NCBI GenBank assembly: GCA_019912845.1 | Contig: JAIOHU010000194.1 | Coordinates: 38,603 to 102,602 of the forward strand | DNA from: a bacterium | GTDB lineage: Bacteria > Electryoneota > Electryoneia > Electryoneales > Electryoneaceae | DNA: 64,000 nt | Reading direction: 5' to 3' | Shown here: piece by piece, positions 3,117-54,399 of the stretch | How the letters are laid out: each line of letters begins with the position of its first letter | Position numbering within the stretch: position 1 is the first letter of the stretch | Notes under the pieces: generated by a model | Databases searched by the model: none | Told to the model about the DNA's origin: nothing | The model's input: only the letters and a program-made list of their open reading frames with translations | Program-made: the position numbers and the translations under genes

Positions 3117-3953
3117 ATGAGTACAAGAATCAACCACAACATTCTCTCCATGACAGCGCAGAGAAACATGTGGGTCACCCAGAATGATATGGAGACTTCG
3201 ATCAATCGTTTGTCTTCAGGTCTTCGTGTTAATTATGCATGGGAAGATCCCGCAGGTCTCGCAGTCAGTGAAAGAATGCGTGCGCAAATTTCATCCATGG
3301 TTGAAGCAGAACGTAACGCCAACTATGATGTAAACTTGCTCGCAACTGCTGAAGGTGCGATGATGGTTATCGACGAAAAGTTGAACCGGATGCGTGCCCT
3401 ATCAGTACAGGCTTCAAATGGTGCCTTAACTTCTACCGATCGCGGTTACATCGACGTTGAATTCCAACAGTTGAAATCCGAGATCACAAGAATCGCTGAG
3501 ACCACCAATTACAACGGCTTGAACCTGATTGACGGTTCTTTCAGTTCCGGAACAGGGATCAAGTTCCACATCGGCACGTACAACACTGCCAACCAGGATT
3601 ACTACTATGTCAACATCAACAGTATGACAGCTGCATCCCTCGGGTTGGGATCAGCCAATCTGTTGACTACGACTACAGCTCAGTCTGCAATCCTGTCGCT
3701 CGACTCTGCGATCAACTCAAAAGACTCAGAGCGTACTCGAGTAGGTTCGTACGTGGAACGTCTGCAGAATACAATTCTTAACCTGCAGATCAGCCGTGAA
3801 AATGCGCAGGCGTCCGAATCTCAAATTCGTGACGCGGACATCGCCGAAGAGATGAGTAATTTCGTTCGTTCCCAGATTCTCTTCCAGACCGGCACATCGA
3901 TGCTGGCACAGGCGAATATGATTCCGCAGATCGTCTCTGGATTGGTCGGTTAG
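3117..3953 (+). CDS. fliC: Flagellin, short D0/D1-only type (278 aa)
   Basis: N-terminal flagellin signature (INHN...RLSSGLRVNYAWEDPAGLAVSERMRAQI) and C-terminal D0 helix (QILFQTGTSMLAQANMIPQIVSGL). AGAGAGG ribosome-binding site 8 nt upstream. Confidence 0.85.
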   Translation: MSTRINHNILSMTAQRNMWVTQNDMETSINRLSSGLRVNYAWEDPAGLAVSERMRAQISSMVEAERNANYDVNLLATAEGAMMVIDEKLNRMRALSVQASNGALTSTDRGYIDVEFQQLKSEITRIAETTNYNGLNLIDGSFSSGTGIKFHIGTYNTANQDYYYVNINSMTAASLGLGSANLLTTTTAQSAILSLDSAINSKDSERTRVGSYVERLQNTILNLQISRENAQASESQIRDADIAEEMSNFVRSQILFQTGTSMLAQANMIPQIVSGLVG

Positions 3954-4290: not shown

Positions 4291-5289
4291 ATGAACATTC
4301 CGTATAAACATGTGAATATTGGTGGTGAAATATTTCGCGTACCAGATTTAGGCAAGATGTTTGGTGGCTGGTGGGTGATTATTCTCATCGTTATTGCACT
4401 CTGGATGGCTAGCGGTATTTATATCGTTGGTCCTGACGAAGAAGGGGTCATACGTACCTTCGGCAAGATGACGAGGATTCATTCGCCGGGCTTGCACTAC
4501 CATTTTCCATATCCTATCGAGCAGGTATTAAAGCCTAAGGTCACGGAAGTAAAACGTATTGAGATAGGATTTCGCAGTAGACGGGGAGGTCAGCCTCTGG
4601 ATGTTCCGGAAGAATCGCTGATGCTCACCGGAGGGCTGAATATCGTCGATATGGATTTCATCGTGCAATATAAAATTCAGGATCCGGTGAAATACTTGTT
4701 CTTCGTGCGTGATGTTCCGACCACCATGCGTATCGCCGCGGAAGCAGTGATTCGCCAGGTTGTTGGAAAACACAAAATTGATGAGGTATTAACAACTGGA
4801 AAAGGTGAGCTTCAGGCTGAAGCATTGCAATCACTGCAATCTATCCTGAACAGTTACGAGATCGGTGTGACGGTCACCCAGATTCAGCTCAAAGATGTCT
4901 GGCCTCCCAATGAGGTCGAGGATGCATTCCGTGAGGTTGCTTCTGCGAAAGAGGACCGTGCACGGTTGATTAATGAAGCACAGGGATATGAAAACAAATT
5001 GATTCCCAAGACGCGCGGTGAAGCGGCTGAGCAGGTTAAACAAGCAGAAGCGTATGCCGCAGAACGTGTCACACGTGCAGAGGGTGATGCAGCTAATTTC
5101 CTCGCAGTGTTGGAGCAGTATAGACGATCACCGAATGTGACAAGGAAACGTATGCTTTTGGAAACACTTGAAATTATTCTCCCGCGATTTAATAAGTATA
5201 TCCTGGACAGCAAAAATGGAGACCTGATAAATGTGGTTGGTTCTTCGCTTGCAAAAGAACCGAGTAGTGTGAAAGGGGGTTCACGATGA
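4291..5289 (+). CDS. hflK: HflK, SPFH/band-7 membrane protease modulator
   Basis: N-terminal transmembrane segment, SPFH domain, Ala/Glu-rich C-terminal coiled coil. Directly followed, with a 4 nt overlap, by an hflC-like paralog. Confidence 0.8.
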   Translation: MNIPYKHVNIGGEIFRVPDLGKMFGGWWVIILIVIALWMASGIYIVGPDEEGVIRTFGKMTRIHSPGLHYHFPYPIEQVLKPKVTEVKRIEIGFRSRRGGQPLDVPEESLMLTGGLNIVDMDFIVQYKIQDPVKYLFFVRDVPTTMRIAAEAVIRQVVGKHKIDEVLTTGKGELQAEALQSLQSILNSYEIGVTVTQIQLKDVWPPNEVEDAFREVASAKEDRARLINEAQGYENKLIPKTRGEAAEQVKQAEAYAAERVTRAEGDAANFLAVLEQYRRSPNVTRKRMLLETLEIILPRFNKYILDSKNGDLINVVGSSLAKEPSSVKGGSR

Positions 5290-6143
5290 CAAAGACCATG
5301 CGAACTCTTATAGGGATAGTAATTGCTGTATTCCTGGTATCACTGGTTACTTATACAGTGGATGAAACCGAGCAGGTTATTATTCTTCAATTTGGTAAAC
5401 CGGTGGGTATGGTGAATAACGCTGGCTTGAAATTCAAGTTGCCGCCACCTTTTAATACGATTGAGCGATTTGAAAAAAGATTGCTCATTTATGATAGCCC
5501 TCCAAACATTGTGGTCACACAAGACAAGAAAAACCTGGTCGTAGATTCGTATGCCAGGTGGCAAATTGTTGATCCATTGCTTTTCCGGCAGACTGTACGT
5601 ACAGAGTCGGGAGCACAGGCTCGTCTCGACGATATTATCTATTCCGATCTTCTCCAGGAATTAGGGCAGCACGAGATGGAAGAAGTTGTAAGTGAAAATC
5701 GTGAAGACATCATGGTAGCTGTTACCAGATATGCAAATGAAAAGGCTAAAGATTTCGGGCTGGAAATCCTGGATGTTCGCATCAAACGTACCGACCTCCC
5801 TCGTGAAAATGAAGATGCTATTTTCCGTAGAATGAGAGCGGAACGGATGCGTATTGCAAATCTCTACCGGTCTGAAGGTGAAGAGGAAGCTCTCAAGATT
5901 CGGGCTGAAGCGGACAAGCAGATTAAAGTTATCATGGCGGATGCTTACAAAGAATCCCAGATTCTTCGCGGTGAAGCAGAGGCCATTGCGGTGAAAACAT
6001 ACGCCGATGCTTTCAACAAGGATCCAGATTTTTACGAATTCTTTAGAACACTTCAGATGTACGAGAACGCTTTAGATGAGAATACAACTCTCGTATTGCC
6101 GCCTGATTCGGAGGTATACAAATACCTGAAATCGAGCAAATGA
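5286..6143 (+). CDS. hflC: HflC, SPFH/band-7 membrane protein
   Basis: N-terminal transmembrane segment and SPFH domain. Paired with the upstream hflK by an ATGA overlap. Confidence 0.8.
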   Translation: MTKTMRTLIGIVIAVFLVSLVTYTVDETEQVIILQFGKPVGMVNNAGLKFKLPPPFNTIERFEKRLLIYDSPPNIVVTQDKKNLVVDSYARWQIVDPLLFRQTVRTESGAQARLDDIIYSDLLQELGQHEMEEVVSENREDIMVAVTRYANEKAKDFGLEILDVRIKRTDLPRENEDAIFRRMRAERMRIANLYRSEGEEEALKIRAEADKQIKVIMADAYKESQILRGEAEAIAVKTYADAFNKDPDFYEFFRTLQMYENALDENTTLVLPPDSEVYKYLKSSK

Positions 6144-8980
6144 ACAATTCGTATATACGAAAATTACGCTGGTTAAATTTTTCCGTCAACCGGTTTGGAA
6201 CATTGCATGGCGATTTTCAGCTTGCACCAGACCGGTTAACGGTATTGCACGGTGAAAATGAAGCGGGTAAAAGTACATTTGTTGCTGCGCTTCTGGCTGT
6301 CTTATACGGTTTATCTGACCAGGAGGCAGGTGTGCGTCCACAAAGGACGCATTTCCTGCCCTGGGAGGGTGACAGTTTTAAGGCTACTCTCGGGTTTGGC
6401 TGGAATGACCGCATTTTCAGGATCGATCGGAACTTCAGGGATCAAACAGTTCATTTGATGACTGAGTCTGGTGAAAATTCCGATCATCTGGTGAGCGAAC
6501 ATGGTAATATGGATGGCATCGGATATCTGCTCACTGGTGGCTTTACACCTGAAGTCTTCATTAAAAGTTTTATCGTACCACAAGAACAGGCTGCCCTGAT
6601 TTCGAGCCCGGGGGAACTGGCAGAAAAAGTCCAAGCATTGACACGGATTTCACCCGGAAGTTCAGCGACTCAATCAGCACGTCAAATTCTCCAAGAGCTT
6701 ATAGGATCAGCAGAAAATTCTGAGGGAGAGGGTACTTCCATTCTCACAGAGAAATATCGCCTCTCCCAAAATATGACGAAGTTACTCGAAGAGCATGCGT
6801 CACTGGTACAGCTCAAGAAAGAAGCAGACCATGTTGTGCGTGATCTGATAGCTCTCGAAAATGAACGAGTAACGCTGAAAACTCGTTTGAAAAGCATTCG
6901 TCGTGGTATTTTACTGAATGAAAAGAAAGACCTTGAATCCCGCCATGATGATATCCTGAATCACACAAAACGTCTTGAGACGCTTCAGGAGGAAGAGGCG
7001 GAATACAAGGATGCCGCACATATCACTTCCAACCTTGAGAAAAAGTTTACCCAGGTTTATGAACGATATCGGGAAGCTGCCGCTACTGCTGAAGGTGCTG
7101 TTCAGGAACGGCAGAAACGGCATGACACGTTTGAATCTGAAAAAGGTAAGATAACAGAATTCTCAAATCTTACTGAATTTGAAATCGAAGAGCTGGATGA
7201 TCTCAGCCAGAATCTTCATCTTTGGAAAAATCTGAACGAAAAACGAGCACGTATTGAAGAGGAATTGGATAAAGAGAAGGAGAACCTGGCAGGACGAGGT
7301 ATCTTTGCCAGACGACTTGAACTTGTTCAGGCGAACTTCCAGATACTTTCGGAAGAAACTCTCCTGGAATATGATCGGCTGGTAGCCGAGCACGATCAAG
7401 CTGAAGCGGAACTAAGGCAAGCTGATGAACGGGTTGCCAAAACCCAACTACCAAAACGAAAAATACGACTGACTCCTTTTGCCATAAGCATCGCATTGAT
7501 TGCGCTGATCGCAGCAATAGGCTCGGCATTGGAGTGGAAACTCGCACAAAATGAACTGGCTGCATTGATGGTTACCAGTGTAGCTGTAATTCTTGTTGTG
7601 GTGCTTGGTGTGCTAGAACATGTAACTTTCCAGCATTCAGCTCGTCAATCCAAACGTGAGCTTTCAGAATCTGAGAAAAAGTTAACCAGGATAGAAAAAA
7701 ATCTCGACTCACTGGCGATTTCAATAAATTTAAAAAATCACGATGAATTACGAAGTTTGCTGTCGGACTCACGCGATCTCTCCGGTGTCGGCAGCAAGTA
7801 TTTTGAGGTTAAAGCAGTCCATGATGATGCGCTTCACGAGCTTGAGTCCGTTGGTGAAAAGATACGTCCCTACCTTGAGGAAGCTGGTGTTATCGGTGAA
7901 GGTGAAATGCCAACCAGGGGCGAAGTGGACGGTTTTGCAGTGCATGTTGCCAATTATCGCAAGGCATTGGAAAAATATCGGTATGTAGAGAATCTTTATA
8001 CGAGTTCATTGGAAGAAGAACGTCGGGCTGCAGACAGAGTGGCTGGCTTCTGGAACGAGTTACAATCGATCTTCACAGAAGCAAAAATCACAGAGCGGGA
8101 AGAAGTTGAACAAGCAGCTAAAGAGTTTAATGTACTGAGTAGCCGTGCTCAACATTACCGAGATATCAGTGAGCAAATCACAACGCTACAGTCTGACGCT
8201 GGCGAAGAGGGAATGCTGAACGCTCTGAAATCCCGCCTTGAGGATACATACCGATACCTTGCCCAATTGGATGATGTAGCTGCAGAACCGGGGACAGTCA
8301 TTCAGCTTCATGAGCTCGAGGAGCAGCTTCAGGACAGACTGCATGAACTGACCCGTGATCTTTCCGATGAACGGGCGCACTTGACTATGCTACAACAGAA
8401 AATTTACCCGGCAATTCATCGTGCTGAACATCAACTAGCTTCAACTCGGAAATTGATGGAAGAAATTGAAATTAAAATCCATGCTCTAACTATTGCCGCA
8501 GATACCTTAAAAAATATAGAGAGCGACGTATTCGATAAGCTCTCGACCATGCTGAACGAAAAACTGCAACCGATTCTCGCTGAACTTGTGCCAAGATGGA
8601 GTGAAGCAACATTTGACAAAGACCTGAACCTGACAGCAAAGGATCGTCAAACAGGAAAAAGCATTTCAGCAGCGAAAGTGCAAAGATTATTGTCTGCAGG
8701 TGCCAGAGATTCGATCTTCCTGGGAGCGAGGTTGGCATTGAGCGACTATCTCGCTGGCGGCTATGTGGATGCACCGTACATCTTCGACGAACCTTTCGCT
8801 CACCTGGATGACAACCGATTCCGTACCGGAATGGATATGCTGATACGTCAGGTGAAAAATGGAAAGCAGGTGATCGTGTTGACCTGCCACAGTGGAAGGC
8901 ACAGAGAGTGGCTGGATCATCTGAACGTTGAGTTAAGGGATTCGGTACAAATGATGGAAATTGAGAGGGAGCTGGCATGA
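6140..8980 (+). CDS. Membrane-anchored Rad50/SbcC-like coiled-coil ATPase (YhaN/SbcE-like)
   Basis: N-terminal P-loop (GENEAGKST) and Q-loop (PQEQ). C-terminal Walker B (YIFDEPFAHLD), H-loop (LTCH) and a degenerate signature (LSAGARD). About 700 aa of coiled coil is interrupted by two hydrophobic helices (AISIALIALIAAIGSAL and LMVTSVAVILVVVLGVL) where a zinc hook would normally sit. 4 nt overlaps with both neighbouring genes. Confidence 0.7.
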   Translation: MNNSYIRKLRWLNFSVNRFGTLHGDFQLAPDRLTVLHGENEAGKSTFVAALLAVLYGLSDQEAGVRPQRTHFLPWEGDSFKATLGFGWNDRIFRIDRNFRDQTVHLMTESGENSDHLVSEHGNMDGIGYLLTGGFTPEVFIKSFIVPQEQAALISSPGELAEKVQALTRISPGSSATQSARQILQELIGSAENSEGEGTSILTEKYRLSQNMTKLLEEHASLVQLKKEADHVVRDLIALENERVTLKTRLKSIRRGILLNEKKDLESRHDDILNHTKRLETLQEEEAEYKDAAHITSNLEKKFTQVYERYREAAATAEGAVQERQKRHDTFESEKGKITEFSNLTEFEIEELDDLSQNLHLWKNLNEKRARIEEELDKEKENLAGRGIFARRLELVQANFQILSEETLLEYDRLVAEHDQAEAELRQADERVAKTQLPKRKIRLTPFAISIALIALIAAIGSALEWKLAQNELAALMVTSVAVILVVVLGVLEHVTFQHSARQSKRELSESEKKLTRIEKNLDSLAISINLKNHDELRSLLSDSRDLSGVGSKYFEVKAVHDDALHELESVGEKIRPYLEEAGVIGEGEMPTRGEVDGFAVHVANYRKALEKYRYVENLYTSSLEEERRAADRVAGFWNELQSIFTEAKITEREEVEQAAKEFNVLSSRAQHYRDISEQITTLQSDAGEEGMLNALKSRLEDTYRYLAQLDDVAAEPGTVIQLHELEEQLQDRLHELTRDLSDERAHLTMLQQKIYPAIHRAEHQLASTRKLMEEIEIKIHALTIAADTLKNIESDVFDKLSTMLNEKLQPILAELVPRWSEATFDKDLNLTAKDRQTGKSISAAKVQRLLSAGARDSIFLGARLALSDYLAGGYVDAPYIFDEPFAHLDDNRFRTGMDMLIRQVKNGKQVIVLTCHSGRHREWLDHLNVELRDSVQMMEIERELA

Positions 8981-10158
8981 GTATTCGTATACTTCAGGCT
9001 TCTGGTCTCAAGCTGGGTGCACCAGTGCTGCCATCAGGACACGGCTTTAGTGAGGATATCGTACGTCAACGCGAAGCTCTCCAGAATAGCCTGCTGAGCA
9101 GAATCGTAACAATTGCACAGGATCAAAATGTTGATTTATTGATCCTTAATGGTGATTTATTCGATTTTTCATCATTTTGCCTTCCAACAATACGTTCAGT
9201 TATCTCCACCCTTAACACTATTCAGGAGACGGCAGTTGTTATTGTTCCTGGTGTGTCGGACAACTTGAGCGAACTAAGCCCTTACAAGGATATTGTGTCA
9301 ACTGCCCTCGGATTAAATTGGGGAGAACATCGTCATATCTTAAGCGATGTACGGTATTCTAACCTCAGTATCGAAACACTCCCCGACCTTATGATTTCAT
9401 TCTATTCTGATGCTGAGAGTACTATTTTTGAATCACAACCTGCCCCCGTTGAAGGAAAGATAAACATTCTGGTTTGCCCAAGTGCAGGGAATGGCAAGGT
9501 AGATTTAAATCAATATAACAAAGCGGGTTTCCAGTGGGTTATCGTTTCCGGGAGTGGATACGAAGAGGTCTTCTCAAATGAGACTGGTGACGTTCTTGCA
9601 GTAGATTCCGGTGAAGTCTTCCAGAACAGTTTTGAGCATCCTGGGAGTGGGAAAGTGGCGGTGTATGAAGTAGATGAAAATGGGATCAAGAAAGACACCC
9701 TCGATTATCACACAATCGATCCGACAAAATTGTTAACCATTCAGGTCGATCTTCCCCTCGAATATGATGATCAGACTATAGATGATATCATTAAAACGCA
9801 GATTGAAAAGCTGGACGTCACATTTGAAGATATCTTATGGATAAAATTCACAGGGAAACATATTGAAGGTCCTTTCGCTCGCTTTGAAATAAATCAATCA
9901 TTGAACTGTAATGCGTTTTTTATCGATACGAGTTCTGTTGAATTCCCTGGATTGGAAAAGATTGCTGTAATGGGGGATGTCATTCCTGAGATTGCCGAAC
10001 GTTTTCAACTCGCTCTGGAACTTAAGCTGGAAAAAGCCGGCTTAGCCGAATCTGAAAAAGTTGCCTTGCGAACCCTGGCATATCAGTATGGGATATCAGC
10101 TCTACGGGGAAAAACCCCTTATCCCTTTGGGGAAAGTAGTAAAAAGAGCACCGATTAA
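8977..10158 (+). CDS. Mre11/SbcD-like calcineurin-fold phosphoesterase with degenerate metal-binding motifs (YhaO/SbcF-like, probably inactive)
   Basis: The N-terminus is collinear with SbcD, but motif I reads ILQASGLKLG where SbcD has ILHTSDWHLG. Motif II GDLFD is retained. Motif III is GVSD instead of GNHD. Translationally coupled to the ATPase. Confidence 0.55.
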   Translation: MSIRILQASGLKLGAPVLPSGHGFSEDIVRQREALQNSLLSRIVTIAQDQNVDLLILNGDLFDFSSFCLPTIRSVISTLNTIQETAVVIVPGVSDNLSELSPYKDIVSTALGLNWGEHRHILSDVRYSNLSIETLPDLMISFYSDAESTIFESQPAPVEGKINILVCPSAGNGKVDLNQYNKAGFQWVIVSGSGYEEVFSNETGDVLAVDSGEVFQNSFEHPGSGKVAVYEVDENGIKKDTLDYHTIDPTKLLTIQVDLPLEYDDQTIDDIIKTQIEKLDVTFEDILWIKFTGKHIEGPFARFEINQSLNCNAFFIDTSSVEFPGLEKIAVMGDVIPEIAERFQLALELKLEKAGLAESEKVALRTLAYQYGISALRGKTPYPFGESSKKSTD

Positions 10159-10257
10159 GAAGAAGAAATCATTTGGATTCGTTAACACGGTTTTGCACGC
10201 TGAACAATACCTTCTAATTTGATTATTAAACTTCAAGTGCAGGAATAAATTACAATT

Positions 10258-11016
10258 ATGATGAGCAATGAGCCAACATCTCTTCCCGATTCAGGAAGCA
10301 CACCAACATCCAAACTCAAACAAATAAGACAGTGGTTCCTGACCGGTCTGGTCTTCCTTGGTCCTTTGGTTTTGACGATCTGGATTGTCATAAAACTGTT
10401 TCTGCTCACAGACAGTATACTTGGTAAACCAATCCGCCTTTTTCTCGCAGAAGTATTGGACCTTCAGTATTTCAAAGAGGGGACGATTTATGGAATTGGC
10501 TTTTTTGTTTTAATGGGAATCATTTTGTTAGCGGGATGGTTTGCACGTCAATACCTCGGAGTTCGGGTTGCGGGTGTCATCAAATCAACGGTGCAGAGAA
10601 TTCCGTTGGTGAACAAAGTTTACCTCGCGATCTTTCAGATATCCGAAGCGTTACTCGGTGGTCAAAAGGAAGTATTCAAGCAGGCTGTTTTGATAGAATA
10701 TCCACGTAAAGGAACTTACTGCATTGGATTTATGACACAGGATACTCGCGGTCCCATTCAAGATGCCATAAAAGAAGATGTAATCAGTATATTTTTACCC
10801 ACTACTCCAAATCCAACTTCTGGATTCCTTTTGTTTTATCCCAAGACAGATGTGGTACTGTTGCACGTGTCAGTTGCTGAAGCGCTCAAACTTATCATTT
10901 CTGCAGGTGCTGTTGTACCTGAATCACAACGTGGGAGACCTGTTACTGCCAGCCAGGCTGGAATTATTTTTGATCCGCCCGGTTCACCTCCCAATGACAA
11001 GGAGGGGAAGGCGTGA
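10258..11016 (+). CDS. DUF502 family inner-membrane protein
   Basis: Two N-terminal transmembrane helices and the conserved PTTPNPTSGFLL motif typical of DUF502/COG2928. Confidence 0.7.
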   Translation: MMSNEPTSLPDSGSTPTSKLKQIRQWFLTGLVFLGPLVLTIWIVIKLFLLTDSILGKPIRLFLAEVLDLQYFKEGTIYGIGFFVLMGIILLAGWFARQYLGVRVAGVIKSTVQRIPLVNKVYLAIFQISEALLGGQKEVFKQAVLIEYPRKGTYCIGFMTQDTRGPIQDAIKEDVISIFLPTTPNPTSGFLLFYPKTDVVLLHVSVAEALKLIISAGAVVPESQRGRPVTASQAGIIFDPPGSPPNDKEGKA

Positions 11017-12860
11017 GGAGAAGTAGGTTTAGACTACTACTCAACCTGCTTTTACTTATCTTCTCAACCGCAACAGCGGCAAATGATTCACTTTATACCC
11101 GTTTCAGCCAGGAACTGGATACACGTATTTTACAGACCAGAGGCAATTACTCAGTATCAGATTCCACCCTTCACCTCCAATCAAGTGCCTACAGTAAGAT
11201 AACCCTGCGTCAGCTTCCTGGATTTGAACCACAATGGAAACGAGACCTCGGGCTGTCGCTCACTTCCACCAGATTTCTATCCCGGAATTTTGATCTTCTT
11301 TTTGAACTTGAAGGCAGTAATTTTCAGGATCAGGAAGCTCCGGAAAGAGTGCAGAAAGGCGGTGTCTCGCTGCATCCTTATGATCTCCGTCCACTCACTG
11401 ATGGTTCACGTCTGGTGACCGGTCAGAACAGTAAAATTACACGGGGTGTCTTGCGTGGAGGAGTATCATACAACCGATCAACGACCCTGCGAAGTACAAT
11501 GCTGGTGGGAGGAGCGTACGATGAGGAGCTGAAAGGTTCAGGTTCCGGTCCATCCATGCGAGGTGATTTTAAACTCCGTCCAATTGATGACCAGAATATC
11601 CAATTCGGCGGGAACGGTTATATCAATTTGTATGACGACCGACGATATCATGATCTCACATTAGATAATTCAATCGTTCGTGATTTTGGTGATGCAACTG
11701 ACCTTTTTGAAGCAAGCTGGCGCAATCGAAGAAGCGATATTTACCTGGGGCTGGAGGGAAATATCGTCAGTCGTGTACATGATGAACTCAGCTTGAGGAA
11801 TCGTCTCAGCACTCCTTTGAGTGAGGACATGAATGGGGTTTACGACCTTGATTTTCGTCGGTCTAATGTCTCCTATCGTGGTGTTGGTCCTGGTGAAAGC
11901 AGGGAGAATGATCTGGTACATCGTCTCGCCTGGATTTATGCACCATCAATCTGGCAGACCATGCTGCAATACAATTTTGCCGTTGAGGATCGGGACTATG
12001 GCGGCACCTTGACGCTGGGAAGAAGGCAGGAGCTGGAGTTGATTACATCCCGAAATAGCGACAAAGACAGCCTGACAGTAAAACTGGGCACAGAAAAACG
12101 ACGTTATGACTCCCCCGACAGCCTTGAAACCAATGACAGAGATCGCCTGGTTCATCATGCTGAGCTGGTTGGTGGGAGATGGCTGACCCCCTGGGTCTAC
12201 ACAGCAGTTGAAATTTCAGTAATACTTGACCATCTTGTATACATTAAGCAGGAACGTTCAGCGGACAATCACTGGAATCGCGTTATCGCATTACGACCTA
12301 TTGTACAATGGTTTCCTGCTGACGGATGGAACAACACAGCTTCTTTTGAAGTTTTAGCTAACTACAGCGTATATGATTTTGAGAGCATGGATGCACGCTC
12401 CGGGATTCGTAGTCGGGTGTTTAGAAGATGGTCTGCTGCCGACACTCTGACCCTCCCCCTGGGAGGACGTGTTCAATTGTCTCTATCCGGACGATATGAT
12501 CTTGAGGAACGGGGAAGGATTATCTGGGATGATTTTGTCCAGGACCTTTCCGACAAAGCCCGGGTGGGATTCGCTGCCACTCACCTTGAATATATATTTC
12601 TCTCAAGACTTCTCTTGAAAATTGGTTACCGTTATCAGAAACGAGTGGAAGAAAGCTTTGAACAAAGCGATATTGTTTTGCAGCAAAATCAGACAGATCG
12701 AACTTATATCAAACGAGGTCCCTCGCTTCGAGTACAAACCTTGTTCAACAGATCATGGCGATTGCTGGTAGATGGAGATTTTCAAACGATTGATGACAAC
12801 CAACGTGAATCTACTGAAACCCTTAATACGGTTTACGTCACCCTTGTTTACCAGTGGTAG
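11013..12860 (+). CDS. Secreted outer-membrane beta-barrel protein, hypothetical
   Basis: Signal peptide (LLLNLLLLIFSTATAAND). Alternating beta-strand-like pattern. C-terminal aromatic residue (YQW). 4 nt overlap with the DUF502 gene. Confidence 0.5.
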   Translation: MRRSRFRLLLNLLLLIFSTATAANDSLYTRFSQELDTRILQTRGNYSVSDSTLHLQSSAYSKITLRQLPGFEPQWKRDLGLSLTSTRFLSRNFDLLFELEGSNFQDQEAPERVQKGGVSLHPYDLRPLTDGSRLVTGQNSKITRGVLRGGVSYNRSTTLRSTMLVGGAYDEELKGSGSGPSMRGDFKLRPIDDQNIQFGGNGYINLYDDRRYHDLTLDNSIVRDFGDATDLFEASWRNRRSDIYLGLEGNIVSRVHDELSLRNRLSTPLSEDMNGVYDLDFRRSNVSYRGVGPGESRENDLVHRLAWIYAPSIWQTMLQYNFAVEDRDYGGTLTLGRRQELELITSRNSDKDSLTVKLGTEKRRYDSPDSLETNDRDRLVHHAELVGGRWLTPWVYTAVEISVILDHLVYIKQERSADNHWNRVIALRPIVQWFPADGWNNTASFEVLANYSVYDFESMDARSGIRSRVFRRWSAADTLTLPLGGRVQLSLSGRYDLEERGRIIWDDFVQDLSDKARVGFAATHLEYIFLSRLLLKIGYRYQKRVEESFEQSDIVLQQNQTDRTYIKRGPSLRVQTLFNRSWRLLVDGDFQTIDDNQRESTETLNTVYVTLVYQW

Positions 12861-12867
12861 ATCAAAC

Positions 12868-14229
12868 TTGCTCCGCGCTCTATCCCAGCTAAGCTATGCA
12901 CTAATTCTCGTTCTCTTTATTCCCTGCATCTCTTCCGCACAATCCACTCCCGCGGTTATTGATACCATCATCATAGAAGGCAATCGCACGACAAAATCGT
13001 TTGTCATTCTCAGCGAAATGAAGTTAAGCTCGGGAATGGTTGCAACACCTGAGTTGATCGATCAGGACAAGCAACGCTTGGAATCATTAGGATTATTCAG
13101 CCGTGTAGAACTCTATCCTGGAACTATCGGTAATGAACAGGCATTAATTGTCGAAGTCACTGAGCTCTGGTATATCTGGCCTGGTATCTACCTCGAAATT
13201 GATGAAGAAGAAATTGAAAATCTGCAACGAACCGCGTATGGTGGTCATATCAATCACGATAATTTCCGTGGAAGACGTGAACACCTTTCCCTGATCGGGT
13301 TTACCGGCTACCGACGTGGTGGGCAGGCTCGTTGGAAAATCCCCTATCTGTTTTCCACAAGAGAGTGGGGTATGAATGTTGAGATGAAGTGGATGGAGGA
13401 GGATGAACCTGGGATTCTGGCAGAACGTGAGGATATAACCTCGCTGTCACGTTCACTTAGAGCCAGCCTGGGAAGAAGACTAAATCTGGAATCCAGCTAC
13501 TCGATCAGCAGTTCCATCGAAGAGCGTCAGTTTTACGAACGAAATGTTGAGAATGGCAGTGAATATGTTGAGCCGGATACAGACAACGATATTCTTTTCG
13601 AGCTGACCGGTGGTTACCACTATGATACACGCTATTATAACCCCTGGCCTACACAGGGGGTCAACCTCGATATCTCCTTTAGCGTTTCAAATAGTCTGAA
13701 CAGTGGAGATGTTTTATATGTCCGTCCCCTGCTTTCGCTCTCGGCGTACAAATTGGTCGCTCCACGGATTTATCTGGCTGGCAGAATTTACAGTCTGGCG
13801 ACTTTTGGCAGCTCTCCGGTTTTTCGTCGCTACATCATCAACAGACTGAAATCTGTGCGAACCTCAGCAGAACGGAGTCTGGAAGGGGATCGTGCTCTGT
13901 TGCTGCAGTCAGAAGTACGATATGACATCATCGATCGAACCTATCTAACCCTCTGGGCACCGTGGAAACTGCAACGTTACACCCGTAACCTCAAATTTGG
14001 TGTTTCCGTTGCAACCTTTGTTGACTATGGTGTCGTAGATGGTGTACACGGTATATATGATCCAGCGAATAAGCCAGACCGTTATTATGCGGGGTGGGAA
14101 GCGGCGTACGGCGCGGCATTGGTCTTTCATGTGCCCTATCGGGATATCATAAGATTCGAAGTATCTCGAAGCGCACGTTTTCCCGACAGTGGTTACCTTT
14201 TCAAGCTTCGGATTGGACCTGCTTTTTAG
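12868..14229 (+). CDS. Omp85/BamA-superfamily outer-membrane protein with a single POTRA domain
   Basis: POTRA-like segment (IIIEGNRTTKSFVILSEMKLSSGMV...LESLGLFSRVEL) followed by a beta-barrel region. The proposed TTG start at 12868 places the signal peptide (LRALSQLSYALILVLFIPCISSAQ) at the N-terminus. The ATG at 12772 would put 58 aa ahead of the signal peptide. Confidence 0.55.
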   Translation: MLRALSQLSYALILVLFIPCISSAQSTPAVIDTIIIEGNRTTKSFVILSEMKLSSGMVATPELIDQDKQRLESLGLFSRVELYPGTIGNEQALIVEVTELWYIWPGIYLEIDEEEIENLQRTAYGGHINHDNFRGRREHLSLIGFTGYRRGGQARWKIPYLFSTREWGMNVEMKWMEEDEPGILAEREDITSLSRSLRASLGRRLNLESSYSISSSIEERQFYERNVENGSEYVEPDTDNDILFELTGGYHYDTRYYNPWPTQGVNLDISFSVSNSLNSGDVLYVRPLLSLSAYKLVAPRIYLAGRIYSLATFGSSPVFRRYIINRLKSVRTSAERSLEGDRALLLQSEVRYDIIDRTYLTLWAPWKLQRYTRNLKFGVSVATFVDYGVVDGVHGIYDPANKPDRYYAGWEAAYGAALVFHVPYRDIIRFEVSRSARFPDSGYLFKLRIGPAF

Positions 14230-15460: not shown

Positions 15461-15833
15461 ATTTATTTCCCGCAATTCATTGAATTTGTCACAATAGTAG
15501 TGGTATATATTAATGTAGAAACCAACTCGTGTGAAGTGTTCGTTCTGGTACGGGTAACTATTAGGGGGAAATCTTCTTTGTCTTCTATGAAAGGGGCTGA
15601 CACGCCCCTTTCGATCCCCAAAATGATCCAATCGGGTATTTTTGCTAAGATATTTAACGGGAATAAGCGCGATACCTGTAGCAAGCTACAGGTCATCCGT
15701 CGCGAATATTTAATTCGTTGAATGATATAGGATTTATATAAACAAGCCATTGACTTTATTGTGGATCAAGAGTAAACTATTTACAAGATTGCAAAGGATT
15801 ATTGGAATCAGTTATTATTTGCGGGGGTATTTT

Positions 15834-18800
15834 ATGAATCGGATCAAAAGAATATTCACAGTGATCTGCATCCTATTATCATTTGGCAGTAGTATGGCGC
15901 AGGATAGTCTGAACATTAGCATGCTGGGTAGTTTATACAACAATTGGGATCTATCTGCTGATCTTTTTATCGTCGATACTTTGGTGTTTATCGCAACAAC
16001 TGGTAGTGGTTTAAGGATTTTAGACATCCGTAATCCTGGTTCTCTTAATGAGCTTGGTTTTTGTTATACGCCGAGCAATGCCTACGATGTCGCAGTTGCT
16101 GGTGAATATGCATATATCGCAGATGGAAGCGAAGGGCTTTGTGTTGTTAACGTGAGTGATCTGGAAAATCCAGTAGTCGTTGGTTCATTCGATGAACCCG
16201 AGTGGGTTGAAGGTGTGGCAGTTCATGGAGGGTATGCTTACCTGACAGATTTTTATCAAGGAATGTGGATAGTTGATATCAGTGATCCGCAGAATCCTTT
16301 TCAGGTTAGCTATATAATTTCCCCCGATCATTCGCAGGATATCGCAGTTGTTGAAGATTACGCCTATGTCGCCATCTGGGATGAGGGATTATGGATAGTT
16401 GATATCAGTGATCCGGAAAACCCTGAAGAAGTTGCAACCCTCAGAACCCGTGATTCAGCTCGGGATGTTACTGTGTTTGACGGTTTTGCTTACATAGCTG
16501 ATAACGAAGCGGGTCTCTTTATCGCTGATGTAACTGATCCCGAAAATCCCATCGAAGTTGGCTCCTATGATACTCATGGTCGTACCAGAGGTGTAGCTGT
16601 CACAGAGAACTACTCATTTATCGCAGACAGTCGGGGAATGCGAGTGATTGATATCACCCAGTTGGAAAACCCTCTGGAGGTCGGATTTTACGATTCAATG
16701 TCTCGTACCACCAGCCTTGTCATCTCAGATTGGATCGCTTTTATTTCTGATGAGGTTGGTGGCCTTCGAGTTGTTAATGTACACGATCCTGAACAACCCA
16801 TTGAAATAGGCAGTTATGACACACCAGCATGGGCACGAGAGGTAGTGGTACAGGGAGAATATGCTTTTATCGCGCATGATGAAGGTGGGCTTCGAGTAGT
16901 TGATATAAGGAATGGAGAGAATCTGTTCGAAGCAGCATTCCTCACTTTTCGTCGACCAGCAATGAATATTGATTTGCAGGGGGATTACGTATATGTGGGT
17001 ACTTCTGATTGGGAGCGGGAAGAAGGCGGTCTTAGAATTGTCGATATCAGCAACCCAGTTGCACCTGATGAAACTGCTTTTTTCGATCTAGAAGAGGTGG
17101 TCAGTGATCTTGCAGTTTCAGAAGGGATCGCATTTGTCGCTACAAATGAAACTGATCTTCATATCTTGGATGTATCTGATCCCGAAAATCCATCAGAAAT
17201 CAGCCAACTTTACCTGCAGGGAAATGCTAGCAGTGTTGCAGTTGAAGGAAATTTTGCTTACGTCGTAGCTGCTGGTCTCAGGGTGGTTGATGTAGGCGAC
17301 ATTCAAAATCCTGTCGAAGTAGGGTTTTACAATCCGGTTGGCAACAATATTAGACATGTTGCTGTTTCGGGAGATATAGCTTACATTGCTGAGAGAGGTC
17401 TCAAAGTATTAGATGTCAGTAATCCAGAAAACCTCGTCGAAATTGGGGCGTTCAACGCACCAGGATCAATCCGGAATATTACTGTTGTAGACAGTTATGT
17501 GTTTGTCGCTTATTCCTGGAAACTTAGCACATCCGGTGGATGTCTACGTGTGATTGATGTCAGTGACCCAACACACCCAGAACAAACGGGATTTTACAAA
17601 ACTCCAGGTATTGCAAACAATGTTTGTGCCGTAAACCAGTTCGCTTATGTGGCGGATTCCTACCATTTTGAAGTTTATGACTGTTCCTATGCAATTGATT
17701 GGCCGGATACTGCCAGTGTATCTGGAATCGTAATTGATGAAGAAACCAGTGAGGTTATCTCCGGAGCTGTAGTGTCTTTCGATGAACATCAAACTTCCAC
17801 AAATGAAAATGGTGAATACAACTTCACCCTCCTTTCTCCTGATAATTATTCTGTAGATGCTTATGCTCTGGACTACGAACCATTTCATGCTGGAAGAGTA
17901 CAGCTTGAATCTGGGGAGAACACTTATAATTTTTCTATGCGAAAGAATGAAAGTTTAAATATCGAAATCCTCTCGATGATCGAGTCTCACTACTACAACG
18001 AAGCTGTGGCAATCGAAGGCGATTTTGCATATGTGGCGGATCAGGATTCAGGATTACGCGTTATTGATGTTTCTGATCCGCAATTCCCAAGAGAAATTGG
18101 TTTTTTTCCCGCAAATGACGCATTTCGCGGTGTCGTTGTGTCAAATGGTTACGCTTATCTTGCTGACCACGGAGCAGGATTTCGTATTGCTGATGTCAGT
18201 GATCCAGAAATTCCTGTTGCAGCAGGATCTCTTGCCACGCCAAACCGAGCAAATAAAGTCGTCGTAGAGGGAGATTATGCATACATAGCAAATACCTATG
18301 ACGGTTTGCGTATTGTCAATGTGAGTGATGCGGCAAATCCTGTGGAAATAGGTGTCTGCAATACACCTGACTGTGCGCTTGATGTAGTAGTCGGGGAAGG
18401 TTTCGCGTATATCGCGGATTATAATGAAGGTTTACGGGTGATCGATATTCATGATCCAGCAATTCCGGTTGAAATCGGCTATTTTACAACAGATGATGAA
18501 TGCGCAATTTGCGTTACTGTTGATGGGAATTATGCCTATGTTGGATATGGTATGGATGGGCTTCGCGTCCTTGATATTAGAAATCCGGCTAACCCTGTAG
18601 AAATTAGCCATTATCAAACACCGGGTCGTGTCTACTGCATCAAAGTTGTTGAAAACTTTGCTTTTATTGCTGATTTTTACGATGGATTAAGAGTGCTCGA
18701 TATCAGCGATCCCACCAATATTGCAGAAACAGGTTTTTATAATACGCCAGGAACAGCCCAATGGGTCGAAATTGAAGGTAACCTTGCGTATGTCGCTGAT

Positions 18801-19151
18801 CGAAATCACCTCGAAATTTTCGACTGTTCAAACGCTATGATTGAGAACATTGCACCAAACATTGATGAAATAAGTTTACCACATGATTTTTTTGTCAGCA
18901 ATGCTTACCCAAATCCTTTTAACAGTACAGTAACTGTTACTGTTGGATTGTCCGAAAACGGAATGATTACGTTACGTCTTTTTAATATCCTTGGACAGGT
19001 AAAGTTTGAATCAACACAGAGATTCAACGCTGGATATCATCGTTTGAGTCTTGACGATGAACAGACTTTTGACGTTGTGAGTGGGATCTATTTCCTGCAG
19101 GTGCAGGTTGGTGGAGTGAACGAAGTGCAGAAGGTGATTTTGTTGAGGTAG
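15834..19151 (+). CDS. T9SS cargo protein: two LVIVD-repeat beta-propellers separated by a CarboxypepD_reg-like domain, T9SS C-terminal sorting domain
   Basis: Signal peptide, then ~20 repeats of the LVIVD motif (GLRVIDISDPENPVEVG). A CarbopepD_reg-like segment (SGIVIDEETSEVISGAVVSF...ENGEYNF). C-terminal domain YPNPFNSTVTVTV...IYFLQVQVGG...KVILLR. The first ATG after the long leader is 15834. Confidence 0.8.
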   Translation: MNRIKRIFTVICILLSFGSSMAQDSLNISMLGSLYNNWDLSADLFIVDTLVFIATTGSGLRILDIRNPGSLNELGFCYTPSNAYDVAVAGEYAYIADGSEGLCVVNVSDLENPVVVGSFDEPEWVEGVAVHGGYAYLTDFYQGMWIVDISDPQNPFQVSYIISPDHSQDIAVVEDYAYVAIWDEGLWIVDISDPENPEEVATLRTRDSARDVTVFDGFAYIADNEAGLFIADVTDPENPIEVGSYDTHGRTRGVAVTENYSFIADSRGMRVIDITQLENPLEVGFYDSMSRTTSLVISDWIAFISDEVGGLRVVNVHDPEQPIEIGSYDTPAWAREVVVQGEYAFIAHDEGGLRVVDIRNGENLFEAAFLTFRRPAMNIDLQGDYVYVGTSDWEREEGGLRIVDISNPVAPDETAFFDLEEVVSDLAVSEGIAFVATNETDLHILDVSDPENPSEISQLYLQGNASSVAVEGNFAYVVAAGLRVVDVGDIQNPVEVGFYNPVGNNIRHVAVSGDIAYIAERGLKVLDVSNPENLVEIGAFNAPGSIRNITVVDSYVFVAYSWKLSTSGGCLRVIDVSDPTHPEQTGFYKTPGIANNVCAVNQFAYVADSYHFEVYDCSYAIDWPDTASVSGIVIDEETSEVISGAVVSFDEHQTSTNENGEYNFTLLSPDNYSVDAYALDYEPFHAGRVQLESGENTYNFSMRKNESLNIEILSMIESHYYNEAVAIEGDFAYVADQDSGLRVIDVSDPQFPREIGFFPANDAFRGVVVSNGYAYLADHGAGFRIADVSDPEIPVAAGSLATPNRANKVVVEGDYAYIANTYDGLRIVNVSDAANPVEIGVCNTPDCALDVVVGEGFAYIADYNEGLRVIDIHDPAIPVEIGYFTTDDECAICVTVDGNYAYVGYGMDGLRVLDIRNPANPVEISHYQTPGRVYCIKVVENFAFIADFYDGLRVLDISDPTNIAETGFYNTPGTAQWVEIEGNLAYVADRNHLEIFDCSNAMIENIAPNIDEISLPHDFFVSNAYPNPFNSTVTVTVGLSENGMITLRLFNILGQVKFESTQRFNAGYHRLSLDDEQTFDVVSGIYFLQVQVGGVNEVQKVILLR

Positions 19152-19383
19152 GGTAAAAGCTGGCTCGGGGCTTTGGGCTTCTGGCTTTTAGAAGACTTTA
19201 ACACCCTTCTCAACATCAACTACATCAGTGCTGGCGCACTGAGTCTTGTCTGGTTCCCCGCCTACGCGGGGATGACGAGGCGGACAAGGCTTTGGGCTAT
19301 TGGCTTCGGTTCCGCACGCAACTTCTTCAGATGTCGCAGAACGAAGAGTAACTGGGAGGCACGATGTAAACGGAAAAAATTGC

Positions 19384-19600
19384 TTCCTGGATCCCGGCCC
19401 AACTCATCACCGGGATGACGCGGGGTGTGATGCCACACTGGAATAGATCGGCTTAGAATTTCAAGGGAATTATTAGACTTGGGATAAATCCCAAGCCAGA
19501 ATAAATGCCAAACTGGAGTGTGGCGCTCCAGGGCGGGGTGGTGTAGTCTTCTGCTCCCCGGGTTCCGCTGCGCTACACCACAGGGCTACACCAATCTCCC
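19384..19600. repeat. Intergenic repeat cluster: module A stem-loop, module B hairpin, module C, inverted module D
   Basis: Module A (19384-19440) recurs at 30061, 40090 and 48871. Modules B and C (19449-19531) recur at 48759-48946. 19552-19600 is the reverse complement of module D. Confidence 0.6.
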
Positions 19601-19777
19601 CGAGGCATAAAGTATGTAAACTTGAAATTATAGTCCATTTACTTGCTGTTACATTGATATTGTTCTAAATTGTACTCTAATGTGTCAGCGAAATACCTGG
19701 GGGTTGATTAAGGCTGTCAGTAATACTCCCTGCCCCGTTTTCGTTCATTTGGATACCTTACGGAATTGGAGTCCATC

Positions 19778-21919
19778 ATGATCTATCCTACTCGAAAAAT
19801 CCTGTTTACCATCTTCTGCCTCACTTCCCTTCTTATAAGTTCAACACTGCTTTTCGCACAGGAAGGCATAGAGCTGTTGTCAACCATTGAGAATGAATCG
19901 TGGGAACGTGTCTGGGATGTTACCTACGAGGACAATTTGCTGTATGTATGTGCCGCATCGGAAGGTATGTTTATTTATAATGTTGAGGATCTGGAAAACC
20001 CCGAATTATTGGGTGAGTTCACCACCGGAGCGACAATGAGGCAGGTGACAATCAAATCTGAATATGCCTATATCGCTGCCGCCAGTCAGGGGATGTATGT
20101 TGTGGATATCAGCACACCCACCAATCCCGTGTTGCGTTCTCAACTTGAAATCGACGAATTCACCTGGACAATTGATGTTCATGGCAACATGGCGTATGCC
20201 ACCGAGTTCGGTGATATCTATGCGATTGATATTTCCGACCCGGACGACCCGGAAATTCTATCTGTCATTGATGCACGTTGCTGTCAGAGGAAGGCACTGA
20301 TCAGGGATGGAATCTCTTACTCGCCATCCGAAAATTGGGGTTTCCAAACCATTGATGTTTCCGACATTTTCAATCCTGTTCAACTGGACATGGAACGTGA
20401 GTACAGTGGGACAGCGTATGATGTAGCGTTGCAGGGGGACTATGCTTATGTCGCATATGCACGACAAGGCATTCTCGTGTACGACATTTCCGATCCGTCA
20501 GATATCTTTGTCGCCGGACGAACCTGGGAATATAACAACATTTTCGGGATAGATGTTCAGGATGGGTATGCTTACTTTACCAATAGTTCAAATGGTATAT
20601 CTGTGCTGGATATCAGCAATCCTGTTGATCCTGCACCAGTCGGATCACATGATGTTGAGGGTGTAATATACGGACTCGCCATAAATCCACCCTATGCATT
20701 CATACCTGCAGGAAACACTGTATCAATCTTTGATTGTTCGGAAGCGATCGGTTATGATGACCAGGAAGAGGTAAACATCCCTCTTGCAACAAATCGTTAC
20801 GAACTGGTTTCCATGCCTCGTCTCCCCTTAGACCTCTTCGCAATCAACTTGTTCGAAGATATCCCCCATCTTGCTATCGTACAAAACGAGCAGGGGCAGG
20901 TTCATATACCTGACCTGATCGACGCCGATTGGATGGTGAATCCTACCGAAGCCTACATGATTTATACAAGCGAAGAGAGCGAATGGGTCTATACAGGTAC
21001 AACCATCCGTGCCGACCATGAGTTCAACCTCCAACCTGATACCTGGAATTGGATTGGCTATCCCTTCACTGACGAAATGCTGGTAGAACAAGCGATGGAA
21101 CCGATTTATGATGAGCTGGAAATTATTCTCAATGATGACGGTGAGATTTTCATTCCTGATCCGGATTTTAACATCAACACCATGGGGAATATGACACCCG
21201 GCGAAGGTTATCGTGTCTTTGTAAATGAGGAAGTCGACCTGGAGTATCCAGAGGAACTCGAACGTGCCGGAGCTTTTACAACGGAAAAATGGAATATCCC
21301 TGAAATTGAAGATACTCCTCATGCGACAGGTTTGCCCTGGGTTGTCCTGGTGACGCTGGACGAAAGTATGAAACAGCAGGCAGCGGTTATCGAACTCTAT
21401 GACGGCAACGTTTTGGTCGGCAGAGCTGCTGTGCTCGAAGACAAACCGGTCACGCCGGTAACAGCATGGCAGGCGATCCCGGAGCATGATATTCCAGGCT
21501 TTTTCCCCGGAAATCCGATCAGTGTGAAAGTGTTGGATGAAAGCGGTGAAGTCGTTGGTGAATCAGGGAGTGCAAACGTCAGCTCATCAGCTTTTGGTAA
21601 AGGTCCTTATGCTGAAATCACGGTATCTGCAATCGAGAATGAATCTGAACTCCCACTCGAACTTTCCATGGGCAAAGCCTATCCGAACCCGTTTAATCCG
21701 TCGATCACTGTTCCATTTACCCTGCCGGAAAAAATGGAAGTCAGTTTGAGTTTATACAATATCGTTGGGCAGCTGGTAGCGGAATTGAACCAGGGAGTGC
21801 TGGATCGAGGTCACCATGAATTGGTCTTCGAAGCTGTGAACCAGACTTCCGGTGTCTATTTCCTCGTCTTGAAAGCTGGCGAACATCACGCCATGCAGAA
21901 GGTGATTTTGTTGAAGTAG
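19778..21919 (+). CDS. T9SS cargo protein: N-terminal LVIVD beta-propeller, non-propeller C-terminal half, T9SS C-terminal domain
   Basis: Signal peptide plus LVIVD repeats, then a domain shared with the C-terminal half of the 51153-54188 protein. C-terminal domain AYPNPFNPSITVPFTLPEKM...VYFLVLKAGEHHAMQKVILLK. ATG at 19778; the listed ORF uses an upstream TTG at 19766. Confidence 0.8.
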   Translation: MIYPTRKILFTIFCLTSLLISSTLLFAQEGIELLSTIENESWERVWDVTYEDNLLYVCAASEGMFIYNVEDLENPELLGEFTTGATMRQVTIKSEYAYIAAASQGMYVVDISTPTNPVLRSQLEIDEFTWTIDVHGNMAYATEFGDIYAIDISDPDDPEILSVIDARCCQRKALIRDGISYSPSENWGFQTIDVSDIFNPVQLDMEREYSGTAYDVALQGDYAYVAYARQGILVYDISDPSDIFVAGRTWEYNNIFGIDVQDGYAYFTNSSNGISVLDISNPVDPAPVGSHDVEGVIYGLAINPPYAFIPAGNTVSIFDCSEAIGYDDQEEVNIPLATNRYELVSMPRLPLDLFAINLFEDIPHLAIVQNEQGQVHIPDLIDADWMVNPTEAYMIYTSEESEWVYTGTTIRADHEFNLQPDTWNWIGYPFTDEMLVEQAMEPIYDELEIILNDDGEIFIPDPDFNINTMGNMTPGEGYRVFVNEEVDLEYPEELERAGAFTTEKWNIPEIEDTPHATGLPWVVLVTLDESMKQQAAVIELYDGNVLVGRAAVLEDKPVTPVTAWQAIPEHDIPGFFPGNPISVKVLDESGEVVGESGSANVSSSAFGKGPYAEITVSAIENESELPLELSMGKAYPNPFNPSITVPFTLPEKMEVSLSLYNIVGQLVAELNQGVLDRGHHELVFEAVNQTSGVYFLVLKAGEHHAMQKVILLK

Positions 21920-22031
21920 ATCTGGCTATGAGACAAGTTTATGTGTTTTCATGAAGAAATTGCTTATATGTTAGTTAAGCATTTCTGAATGTAATTTTAA
22001 CACAAAATGTAAAGATAAGGCAGAAGGTATA

Positions 22032-24200: not shown

Positions 24201-24500
24201 AACAATAGCACGGAATCTTGTATTCCGAGAAAAAGGTTCCCTGAGTCGACGCAAGCGATCAAATTGAAATTGTATTGGTGAATTAATGTTTCGCTACTAG
24301 AGAGACGATTCCGACAAGTGGACAACCTGAACCACTTCAATCGGCCATCAGAGGTGAAGACAATCCAAATTGATGTGAGAATCTTAAGCTGTTGAGATGT
24401 ATGATTAGGTTCAATCGGAATCGCTCTGAATCTTTTCCCTGGGATGCAAGTTCCCTGGCTACGCTTACTAGAACGAACAGCTACATGATAGTAATAGTTT

Positions 24501-54188: not shown

Positions 54189-54399
54189 GTCCGAATCCTC
54201 TAAGTAGCAAGAGTTGGTCAAGGTGCGACTTACATCAGATTACATTATTAGCAATCAGTTTGCAAATGAATTCATGTCACTTTCTAAAAATCTCGCAAGA
54301 AGTCTCTCAGGGAAAGGACGCCAGGTGAGGAAAATACTGGATTTCCCCTTGAGAAAATCAAAAAAATAACGATACCTTTAGCGTTTGGAATTTGTGGAC

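Follow-up and report, generated by a model that had tools for sequence, protein, structure and literature searches.

A YhaN/SbcE-family ATPase with a predicted transmembrane hairpin in place of the Rad50 zinc hook

The stretch of DNA considered here (the window) comprises 64,000 nucleotides from a bacterium of the Electryoneaceae (Electryoneota; GenBank assembly GCA_019912845.1, contig JAIOHU010000194.1, positions 38,603 to 102,602 of the forward strand). Near one end it codes for a Rad50/SbcC-like ATP-binding cassette (ABC) ATPase, followed directly by a gene for a Mre11/SbcD-like partner, and the pair stands behind hflK and hflC in a co-directional block (Table 1). The block is tightly packed: hflK and hflC overlap by 4 nucleotides (nt), and the DNA read directly at the two following junctions has the hflC stop overlapping the ATPase start, and the ATPase stop overlapping the partner start, each time as ATGA; ATGA overlaps are found at three junctions of the block in the window. 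Both Pfam models that match the ATPase pass their gathering scores, AAA_23 with 35.8 bits (cutoff 27) and AAA_27 with 30.8 bits (cutoff 22). By sequence the protein is a member of the YhaN/SbcE family (Pfam PF13514, AAA_27), which we take to be COG4717. Our subject is the middle of this ATPase, the apex of its coiled coil, where a hydrophobic helical hairpin predicted to cross the membrane is found instead of the CxxC zinc hook of Rad50 and SbcC.

Table 1. Genes of the hflK-Omp85 block and features of the ATPase (window coordinates; aa, amino acid residues; KD19, Kyte-Doolittle mean over 19 residues; AF2, AlphaFold2; K/R, lysine or arginine)
Feature	Coordinates	Strand	Evidence and remarks
hflK (SPFH/Band_7; FtsH modulator)	4291..5289	+	heads the co-directional block; TIGR01933 265 bits vs cutoff 159; Pfam Band_7
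hflC (SPFH/Band_7)	5286..6143	+	TIGR01932 219 bits vs cutoff 134
Rad50/SbcC-like ABC ATPase, YhaN/SbcE family, 946 aa	6140..8980	+	AAA_23, AAA_27, family profile, Foldseek
Walker A, GENEAGKST, aa 38-46	6251..6277	+	N40, G43, K44 invariant in 110 relatives
N-terminal helical arm, aa ~201-435	6740..7444	+	AF2 helices 201-270, 279-288, 297-344, 349-385, 390-401, 405-435
Predicted transmembrane helix 1, aa ~445-465	7472..7534	+	KD19 2.31; AF2 helix 446-465; K/R-rich PKRKIR just before
Loop WKLAQN, aa 466-471, predicted extracytoplasmic	7535..7552	+	AF2 loop 466-471
Predicted transmembrane helix 2, aa ~472-492, running on into the C-terminal arm	7553..7615	+	KD19 2.87; AF2 helix 472-528
C-terminal helical arm, aa ~493-816	7616..8587	+	AF2 helices to 528, 534-547, 552-581, 593-647, 656-680, 691-708, 720-816
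ABC signature LSAGARD, aa 851-857	8690..8710	+	S852 108/110, G854 110/110, A855 82/110, D857 90/110
Walker B and D-loop, APYIFDEPFAHLDDN, aa 878-892	8771..8815	+	D883 invariant; 884 E/D 109/110; D890 107/110; D891 108/110
H-loop VLTCHSG, aa 913-919	8876..8896	+	C916 107/110, H917 95/110
Mre11/SbcD-like partner, 393 aa, active site lost	8977..10158	+	TIGR00619 sbcD E 6e-5; family profile
DUF502 membrane protein	10258..11016	+	Pfam DUF502 E 1e-30; conserved downstream neighbour
615-aa protein	11013..12860	+	conserved downstream neighbour
POTRA/Omp85 outer-membrane protein	12772..14229	+	Pfam Omp85 1.3e-11, POTRA 2.9e-9; equivalent place in related loci

A preliminary description of this DNA had placed two hydrophobic segments of about 20 residues within 7440-7640, and they are indeed there. 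The first, AISIALIALIAAIGSAL, occupies residues 448-464 (nt 7481-7531) and the second, LMVTSVAVILVVVLGVL, residues 476-492 (nt 7565-7615) of the open reading frame 6140-8980 (+). Their KD19 values are the highest of the entire protein. On the Hessa insertion scale, used here as an unweighted sum, segment 2 reaches -2.64, to be compared with -2.65 for the anchor of the adjacent HflK and with a median of +22 for the 19-residue stretches of the whole protein. A chance hydrophobic run is readily rejected: in 2000 shuffles of the protein, two such segments never came within 40 residues of one another (0/2000), and even a single one appeared in 80 only. The structure predicted by AlphaFold2 from a 110-sequence alignment (mean predicted local distance difference test score, pLDDT, 86) makes the apex a 48-residue helix-loop-helix flanked on either side by the helical arms. 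The absence of a hook, claimed at the outset, holds as well: the protein has a single cysteine, C916, and there is no CxxC anywhere along its length.

The family alignment gives this apex a polarity. Among 94 relatives with two clear segments, the 15 residues that precede helix 1 contain on average 4.3 K/R, the 15 that follow helix 2 contain 3.3, and the loop, which measures about 5 residues beyond the two 19-residue segments, contains 0.35; in the window protein, 6-8 residues separate the helices. In the 110 relatives of the alignment, hydrophobic or small residues make up 85-97% of columns 450-464 and 473-491, where K/R is at ~0%, and columns 439-443 are 35-61% K/R. Taken together, this fits a predicted helical hairpin whose two ends face the cytoplasm, only a minimal loop lying outside, the side of the two arms being predicted from the K/R-rich flanks and the short loop. 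Within each predicted helix, small residues about seven positions apart are conserved: glycine at 63% and alanine at 27% in column 455 (window 7502-7504); glycine at 58%, alanine at 15% and serine at 10% in column 462 (7523-7525); glycine at 60% and alanine at 22% in column 482 (7583-7585); glycine at 67% and alanine at 11% in column 488 (7601-7603). This suggests tight helix-helix packing. Hydrophobicity, positive-inside flanks, short loop, predicted helices, lack of CxxC and conservation in the family all back the proposal, already made in the preliminary description, of a transmembrane hairpin at the tip of the coiled coil.

As a separate matter, the direct orthologs of the window protein (29-38% identical overall) have in common a loop motif, L-E/Q-W-K/R-L/V-x-x-N, at residues 465-471 (window 7532-7552). 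No other part of the apex is as well conserved within that clade, and the motif could serve for contacts at the outer face.

The hydrophobic pair is real, and it turns out to be widely shared in the YhaN/SbcE family, which the preliminary description had named for comparison only. A homolog search over 1.84 billion representatives of clusters at 50% identity yielded 1209 clusters at E<=1e-10, and 4175 relatives when the limit was relaxed to E<=1e-3. Among the best 150 cluster representatives, 133 proteins are full-length; of these nearest relatives, 132 have a central hydrophobic segment, and 115 have exactly two. A CxxC near the middle occurs in one of the 133, and looks like a chance occurrence. 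The segment is further present in 17 of 18 relatives from named genomes (Nitrospirota, Sumerlaeota, Chloroflexota, Clostridia), the scan of named-genome contigs having returned distant clades and none from the close clade of the window gene itself, in all 16 further metagenome relatives, and in 95 of the 126 family proteins collected by a profile search. PF13514 is recorded on nearly all these relatives, and many of the matches bear the JGI label 'uncharacterized protein YhaN'; the window ATPase is ~17-28% identical to members of other family clades. Judging from these comparisons, the predicted two-helix apex is a hallmark of the YhaN/SbcE family and is not peculiar to the window gene. What is new at this place is the nuclease-dead partner and the linkage to hflKC; the family itself had already been named, and is under-studied.

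The ATPase head retains the essentials of its kind. The family profile matches Rad50 heads at E 6e-19, with archaeal and Thermotoga Rad50 as the nearest, and in Foldseek the full-length AlphaFold2 model aligns with chains of Smc5/6, condensin, Rad50, MukB and JetC. Walker A (GENEAGKST), the Walker B/D-loop region YIFDEPFAHLDD, the Q-loop glutamine Q148 and the H-loop histidine H917 are all in place, as had been stated from the outset. The signature motif, LSAGARD, had been described as degenerate when compared with LSGGE. This does not stand: in the 110 relatives the consensus is L-S-x-G-A-R-D-Q, so that the window protein simply displays the family form. The serine and the second glycine are the residues that matter in ABC signatures, and both are kept.

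Similarity to Rad50-Mre11 and SbcC-SbcD rests on a homologous head, antiparallel helical arms, the N-terminal one with a strong hydrophobic periodicity of 3.5 residues, and a homologous partner. Unlike these proteins, the window ATPase has no CxxC zinc hook, a predicted transmembrane hairpin at the apex, a predicted membrane location, and a signature of the form LSxGARDQ where the others have LSGGE/Q. It is not a Rad50 equivalog, its NCBIfam Rad50 scores being 51 and 35 bits for cutoffs of 700 and 1000. In the comparison with Escherichia coli SbcC that the preliminary description had suggested, the family profile itself reaches no better than E 4e-4. The SMC hinge family gave no match, and SMC_N, with 24.8 bits, fell short of its cutoff of 40.

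The second gene of the pair tells a different story. Its product is homologous to the partners present in all related loci, matches orthologs carrying the Metallophos domain (phmmer, E 9e-35), and the profile of its family matches SbcD and Mre11 structures at E 1e-24. Among the five phosphoesterase motifs, only motif II (GDLFD) is kept: motif I has changed from SDWHLG to SGLKLG, motif III from GNHD to GVSD and motif V from GHYH to GSGY, and motif IV (LLFHGS) is deleted. A catalytically competent Mre11/SbcD partner, with motifs I, III, IV and V, is not what the window holds. All five motifs are kept in 17 of 17 aligned relatives, and motifs III and V in 13 of 13 further partners from a metagenome scan, so that none of the 30 other relatives examined has lost the catalytic motifs that were checked. 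The C-terminal residues A368, G372 and A375 (A-x3-G-x2-A) do not vary among the 18 aligned sequences, that of the window included, and by analogy with Mre11 this segment may be an ATPase-binding module. Since the reading frame is intact, the protein is probably a pseudo-nuclease retained as a non-catalytic subunit. A word-index homolog search started from the partner returned the identical NCBI entry only.

The two genes in front of the pair qualify as true hflK and hflC by the NCBIfam cutoffs. The order hflK-hflC-ATPase-partner-DUF502-~615 aa-POTRA/Omp85 (window 4291-14229, +) recurs, whole or as far as the contig end, in related loci (L001, L023-L025, L028, L030-L033), and the DUF502 gene sits in the equivalent place in L001, L024, L027, L030, L031 and L032. 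The 615-residue protein finds no match in Pfam or NCBIfam. Its orthologs, at 29-42% identity, occupy the equivalent place in eight related loci, directly upstream of the POTRA/Omp85 gene, and it may be an uncharacterised partner in outer-membrane biogenesis. In the clade where the ATPase gene precedes the nuclease gene, hflKC stands upstream of the ATPase in 10 of the 11 loci with upstream DNA, L027 being the exception. By contrast, the ~30 loci examined from other clades all lack hflKC; their nuclease gene comes before the ATPase gene, and their contexts are unrelated. In five other phyla, comparison of the neighbours revealed no third conserved gene beside the ATPase/nuclease pair. Identity across the syntenic loci is 54-77% for HflC, as against 25-34% for the ATPase and 21-27% for the partner, which indicates that the genomes are not very distant and that the pair evolves fast. 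A scan of the block for promoters and terminators gave no signal exceeding that of shuffles. We found, in the literature searched, no link of HflKC to SMC- or Rad50-like proteins; the association reported here is one of gene order alone.

Outside the block, an open reading frame with a flagellin-like translation (judged by reading the translation) lies just upstream of hflK, at 3117-3953 (+), and a UvrD-family helicase gene is found further downstream, at 31181-33430 (+). Six large LVIVD-repeat proteins with Por_Secre_tail sorting domains (type IX secretion) are coded at 15750-28053 (+), 46538-48745 (+) and 51153-54221 (-), and suggest a member of the FCB group (locus tag prefix K8I28).

Experimental knowledge of the family is scarce: the work on Bacillus subtilis SbcE (YhaN) and SbcF (YhaO) is its sole experimental paper in the open-access literature that we searched. 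Described in 2009 as lacking CxxC and having deviant ATPase motifs, SbcE interacts with the SbcD-like SbcF and acts in double-strand-break repair and in transformation (PMC2811018). Depending on ComK, it accumulates together with the DNA-uptake machinery at the cell poles, and its foci shift from pole to pole within minutes (PMC2811018). It has a "unique central domain", the first half of which is hydrophobic, and which was completely insoluble when expressed; the word "transmembrane" is absent from the paper (PMC2811018), and in the open-access literature searched we found none that calls the YhaN/SbcE family membrane-embedded. As far as the published description of SbcE permits comparison, the window ATPase has the same bipartite Rad50-like head, long arms, central hydrophobic domain, lack of CxxC and deviant signature, and its gene likewise adjoins that of a Mre11/SbcD-like phosphoesterase. 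It differs in gene order, the ATPase here preceding the nuclease where other clades have the nuclease first, in being embedded, with its partner, behind hflK-hflC, and in having a partner that is catalytically dead.

From these elements we favour, with somewhat better than even confidence, the following proposal: the window codes for a YhaN/SbcE ATPase whose apex carries a transmembrane hairpin instead of the hook, and which would work as a DNA clamp or tether held at the membrane. The two halves of the head, N- and C-terminal, would be joined by the two long helical arms, closed at the apex by the two-helix hairpin. Because both arms are predicted to leave the membrane on its K/R-rich cytoplasmic side, the ATPase would be suspended from the cytoplasmic membrane on its inner side, which would keep head and partner at a depth of some tens of nanometres in the cell. 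The small residues kept at 455, 462, 482 and 488 are typical of tightly packed membrane helices, and we infer that the hairpins of two protomers could pack through them in the bilayer; such packing would provide constitutive dimerisation at the apex, as the zinc hook does in Rad50, and fix the complex to the membrane in addition. By analogy with SbcE/SbcF, binding or tethering of DNA ends near the membrane, for example of DNA entering through the envelope or of broken ends, would depend on ATP. In the organism of the window the complex would act as a clamp or tether and not as a nuclease, the partner having lost its phosphoesterase site and kept its invariant C-terminal module. More speculatively, the conserved hflK-hflC genes directly upstream suggest that the HflKC/FtsH system might organise the anchor or control its turnover. 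A stricter version asks for permanent anchoring of the tip, hairpins dimerised in the bilayer, work in or beside the HflKC/FtsH compartment, and ATP-driven DNA tethering or surveillance instead of cutting, this last element being drawn from a lineage that keeps the ATPase and the binding module of the partner and has dropped the nuclease site. Taken as a whole, this version is rather unlikely.

Several observations weigh against the membrane-held clamp. Anchoring of the ATPase is a prediction, from sequence and model, and helix 1 taken alone is marginal on the Hessa scale (+0.34). SbcE-YFP forms mobile foci that were described as lying "on the nucleoid", and SbcE was never termed a membrane protein (PMC2811018). 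The arms are unequal, ~235 residues on the N-terminal side and ~324 on the C-terminal side (about 90 more), and both are interrupted, which makes the reach of the head uncertain. A YhaN-like subclade of proteins of ~1170 residues (P0092-P0126), together with one relative from Planctomycetia (L002, 5956-8895), has neither hydrophobic segment nor CxxC; some relatives consequently do without the anchor. The dead nuclease could be a sign of decay of the system in the lineage of the window. The linkage to hflKC, finally, may reflect inherited gene order instead of functional coupling, the syntenic genomes being fairly close relatives, so that part of the synteny is possibly due to inheritance.

The gene context invites another interpretation, in which no DNA machine is involved: a membrane-associated ATPase would act with HflKC/FtsH and the downstream envelope genes to control the quality of membrane proteins or to organise the envelope, with the Mre11-like protein as a scaffold. 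Conservation of the block from hflK to Omp85, with genes that overlap in the window, is in favour of it, and so is the loss of the nuclease site when the ATPase motifs and the C-terminal module of the partner are maintained. However, the nuclease motifs are intact in the 30 other relatives, the nuclease is the sole conserved neighbour outside the clade, where hflKC is not present, the one member that has been studied, SbcE, acts in DNA repair and transformation, and the kinship of the syntenic genomes deprives their common gene order of part of its weight. We hold this interpretation to be unlikely.

In toxins of the ClyA family, a long helical bundle ends in a hydrophobic hairpin, and the hairpin of the ATPase could similarly be a conditional insertion element, as in these alpha-pore-forming toxins: it would lie packed against the helical bundle when soluble and insert upon some trigger, with a complex cycling between nucleoid and membrane. 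Residues 401-577 of the family profile (window ~7340-7870) do match Hbl L1, Nhe L1 and MakA weakly (E 7e-5 to 1e-4), and the travel of SbcE foci between the poles within minutes is in its favour. Yet the window segment, submitted as a single sequence, has no ClyA-family match below E 0.47; the likeness is probably one of composition, homology is rejected, and the resemblance is treated as analogy or composition. The toxins (Hbl L1, NheB/L1, MakA) have neither ATPase head nor partner. Positive-inside flanks and co-translational insertion would make a stable soluble state unlikely, and a protein that diffuses laterally in the membrane would give mobile foci just as well. Conditional insertion is, on this account, quite improbable.

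A third possibility does away with the membrane altogether: the hydrophobic segments would be the buried core of a soluble, hinge-like dimerisation domain, and the ATPase would be cytoplasmic. This would suit the SbcE-YFP foci on the nucleoid (PMC2811018), the insolubility of the isolated central domain of SbcE is also explicable by a hydrophobic dimer interface, and the marginal score of helix 1 goes in the same direction. But wide-field microscopy foci cannot tell the membrane from the surface of the nucleoid, and helix 2 is as hydrophobic as the true anchor of HflK. Within the segments, sequences of low identity conserve hydrophobicity, with K/R at ~0% over ~40 columns, K/R-rich flanks and a very short loop, which argues for a lipid-exposed anchor and not for a packed soluble core. 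A soluble hinge thus seems very unlikely. As for an anti-phage or anti-plasmid module akin to the SMC-like ATPases of Lamassu and Wadjet, stationed at the membrane where it would encounter DNA on its way in, we reject it as hardly credible: the weak PADLOC matches over the head regions (LmuB, 2e-10, 38 bits; mad3, 4e-11) and the presence of JetC and LmuB among many SMC-like Foldseek matches reflect a generic likeness of head and coiled coil, the general SMC-like fold that LmuB and JetC share with the window ATPase, but the cognate partners LmuA or JetA/B/D are not present, the neighbours match no defence model and form no defence island, the gene lies in a conserved housekeeping block, and 50,697 phage records gave no match and 72,556 plasmid records a single marginal one, on an 861-kb replicon.

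Current models of how Rad50 and SbcC complexes dimerise and bridge DNA give the zinc hook a central place. Here a large bacterial sister family, with its 1209 clusters, swaps the hook for an apparent membrane anchor, and the authors of the SbcE work had noted the hydrophobic, insoluble central domain of their protein without reading it as transmembrane (PMC2811018). The window amounts to a natural experiment, with an intact ATPase next to a nuclease-dead partner. If the proposal is true, a machine of the Mre11-Rad50 kind would be stationed at the inner face of the membrane, where DNA enters by transformation, by conjugation or from phages.

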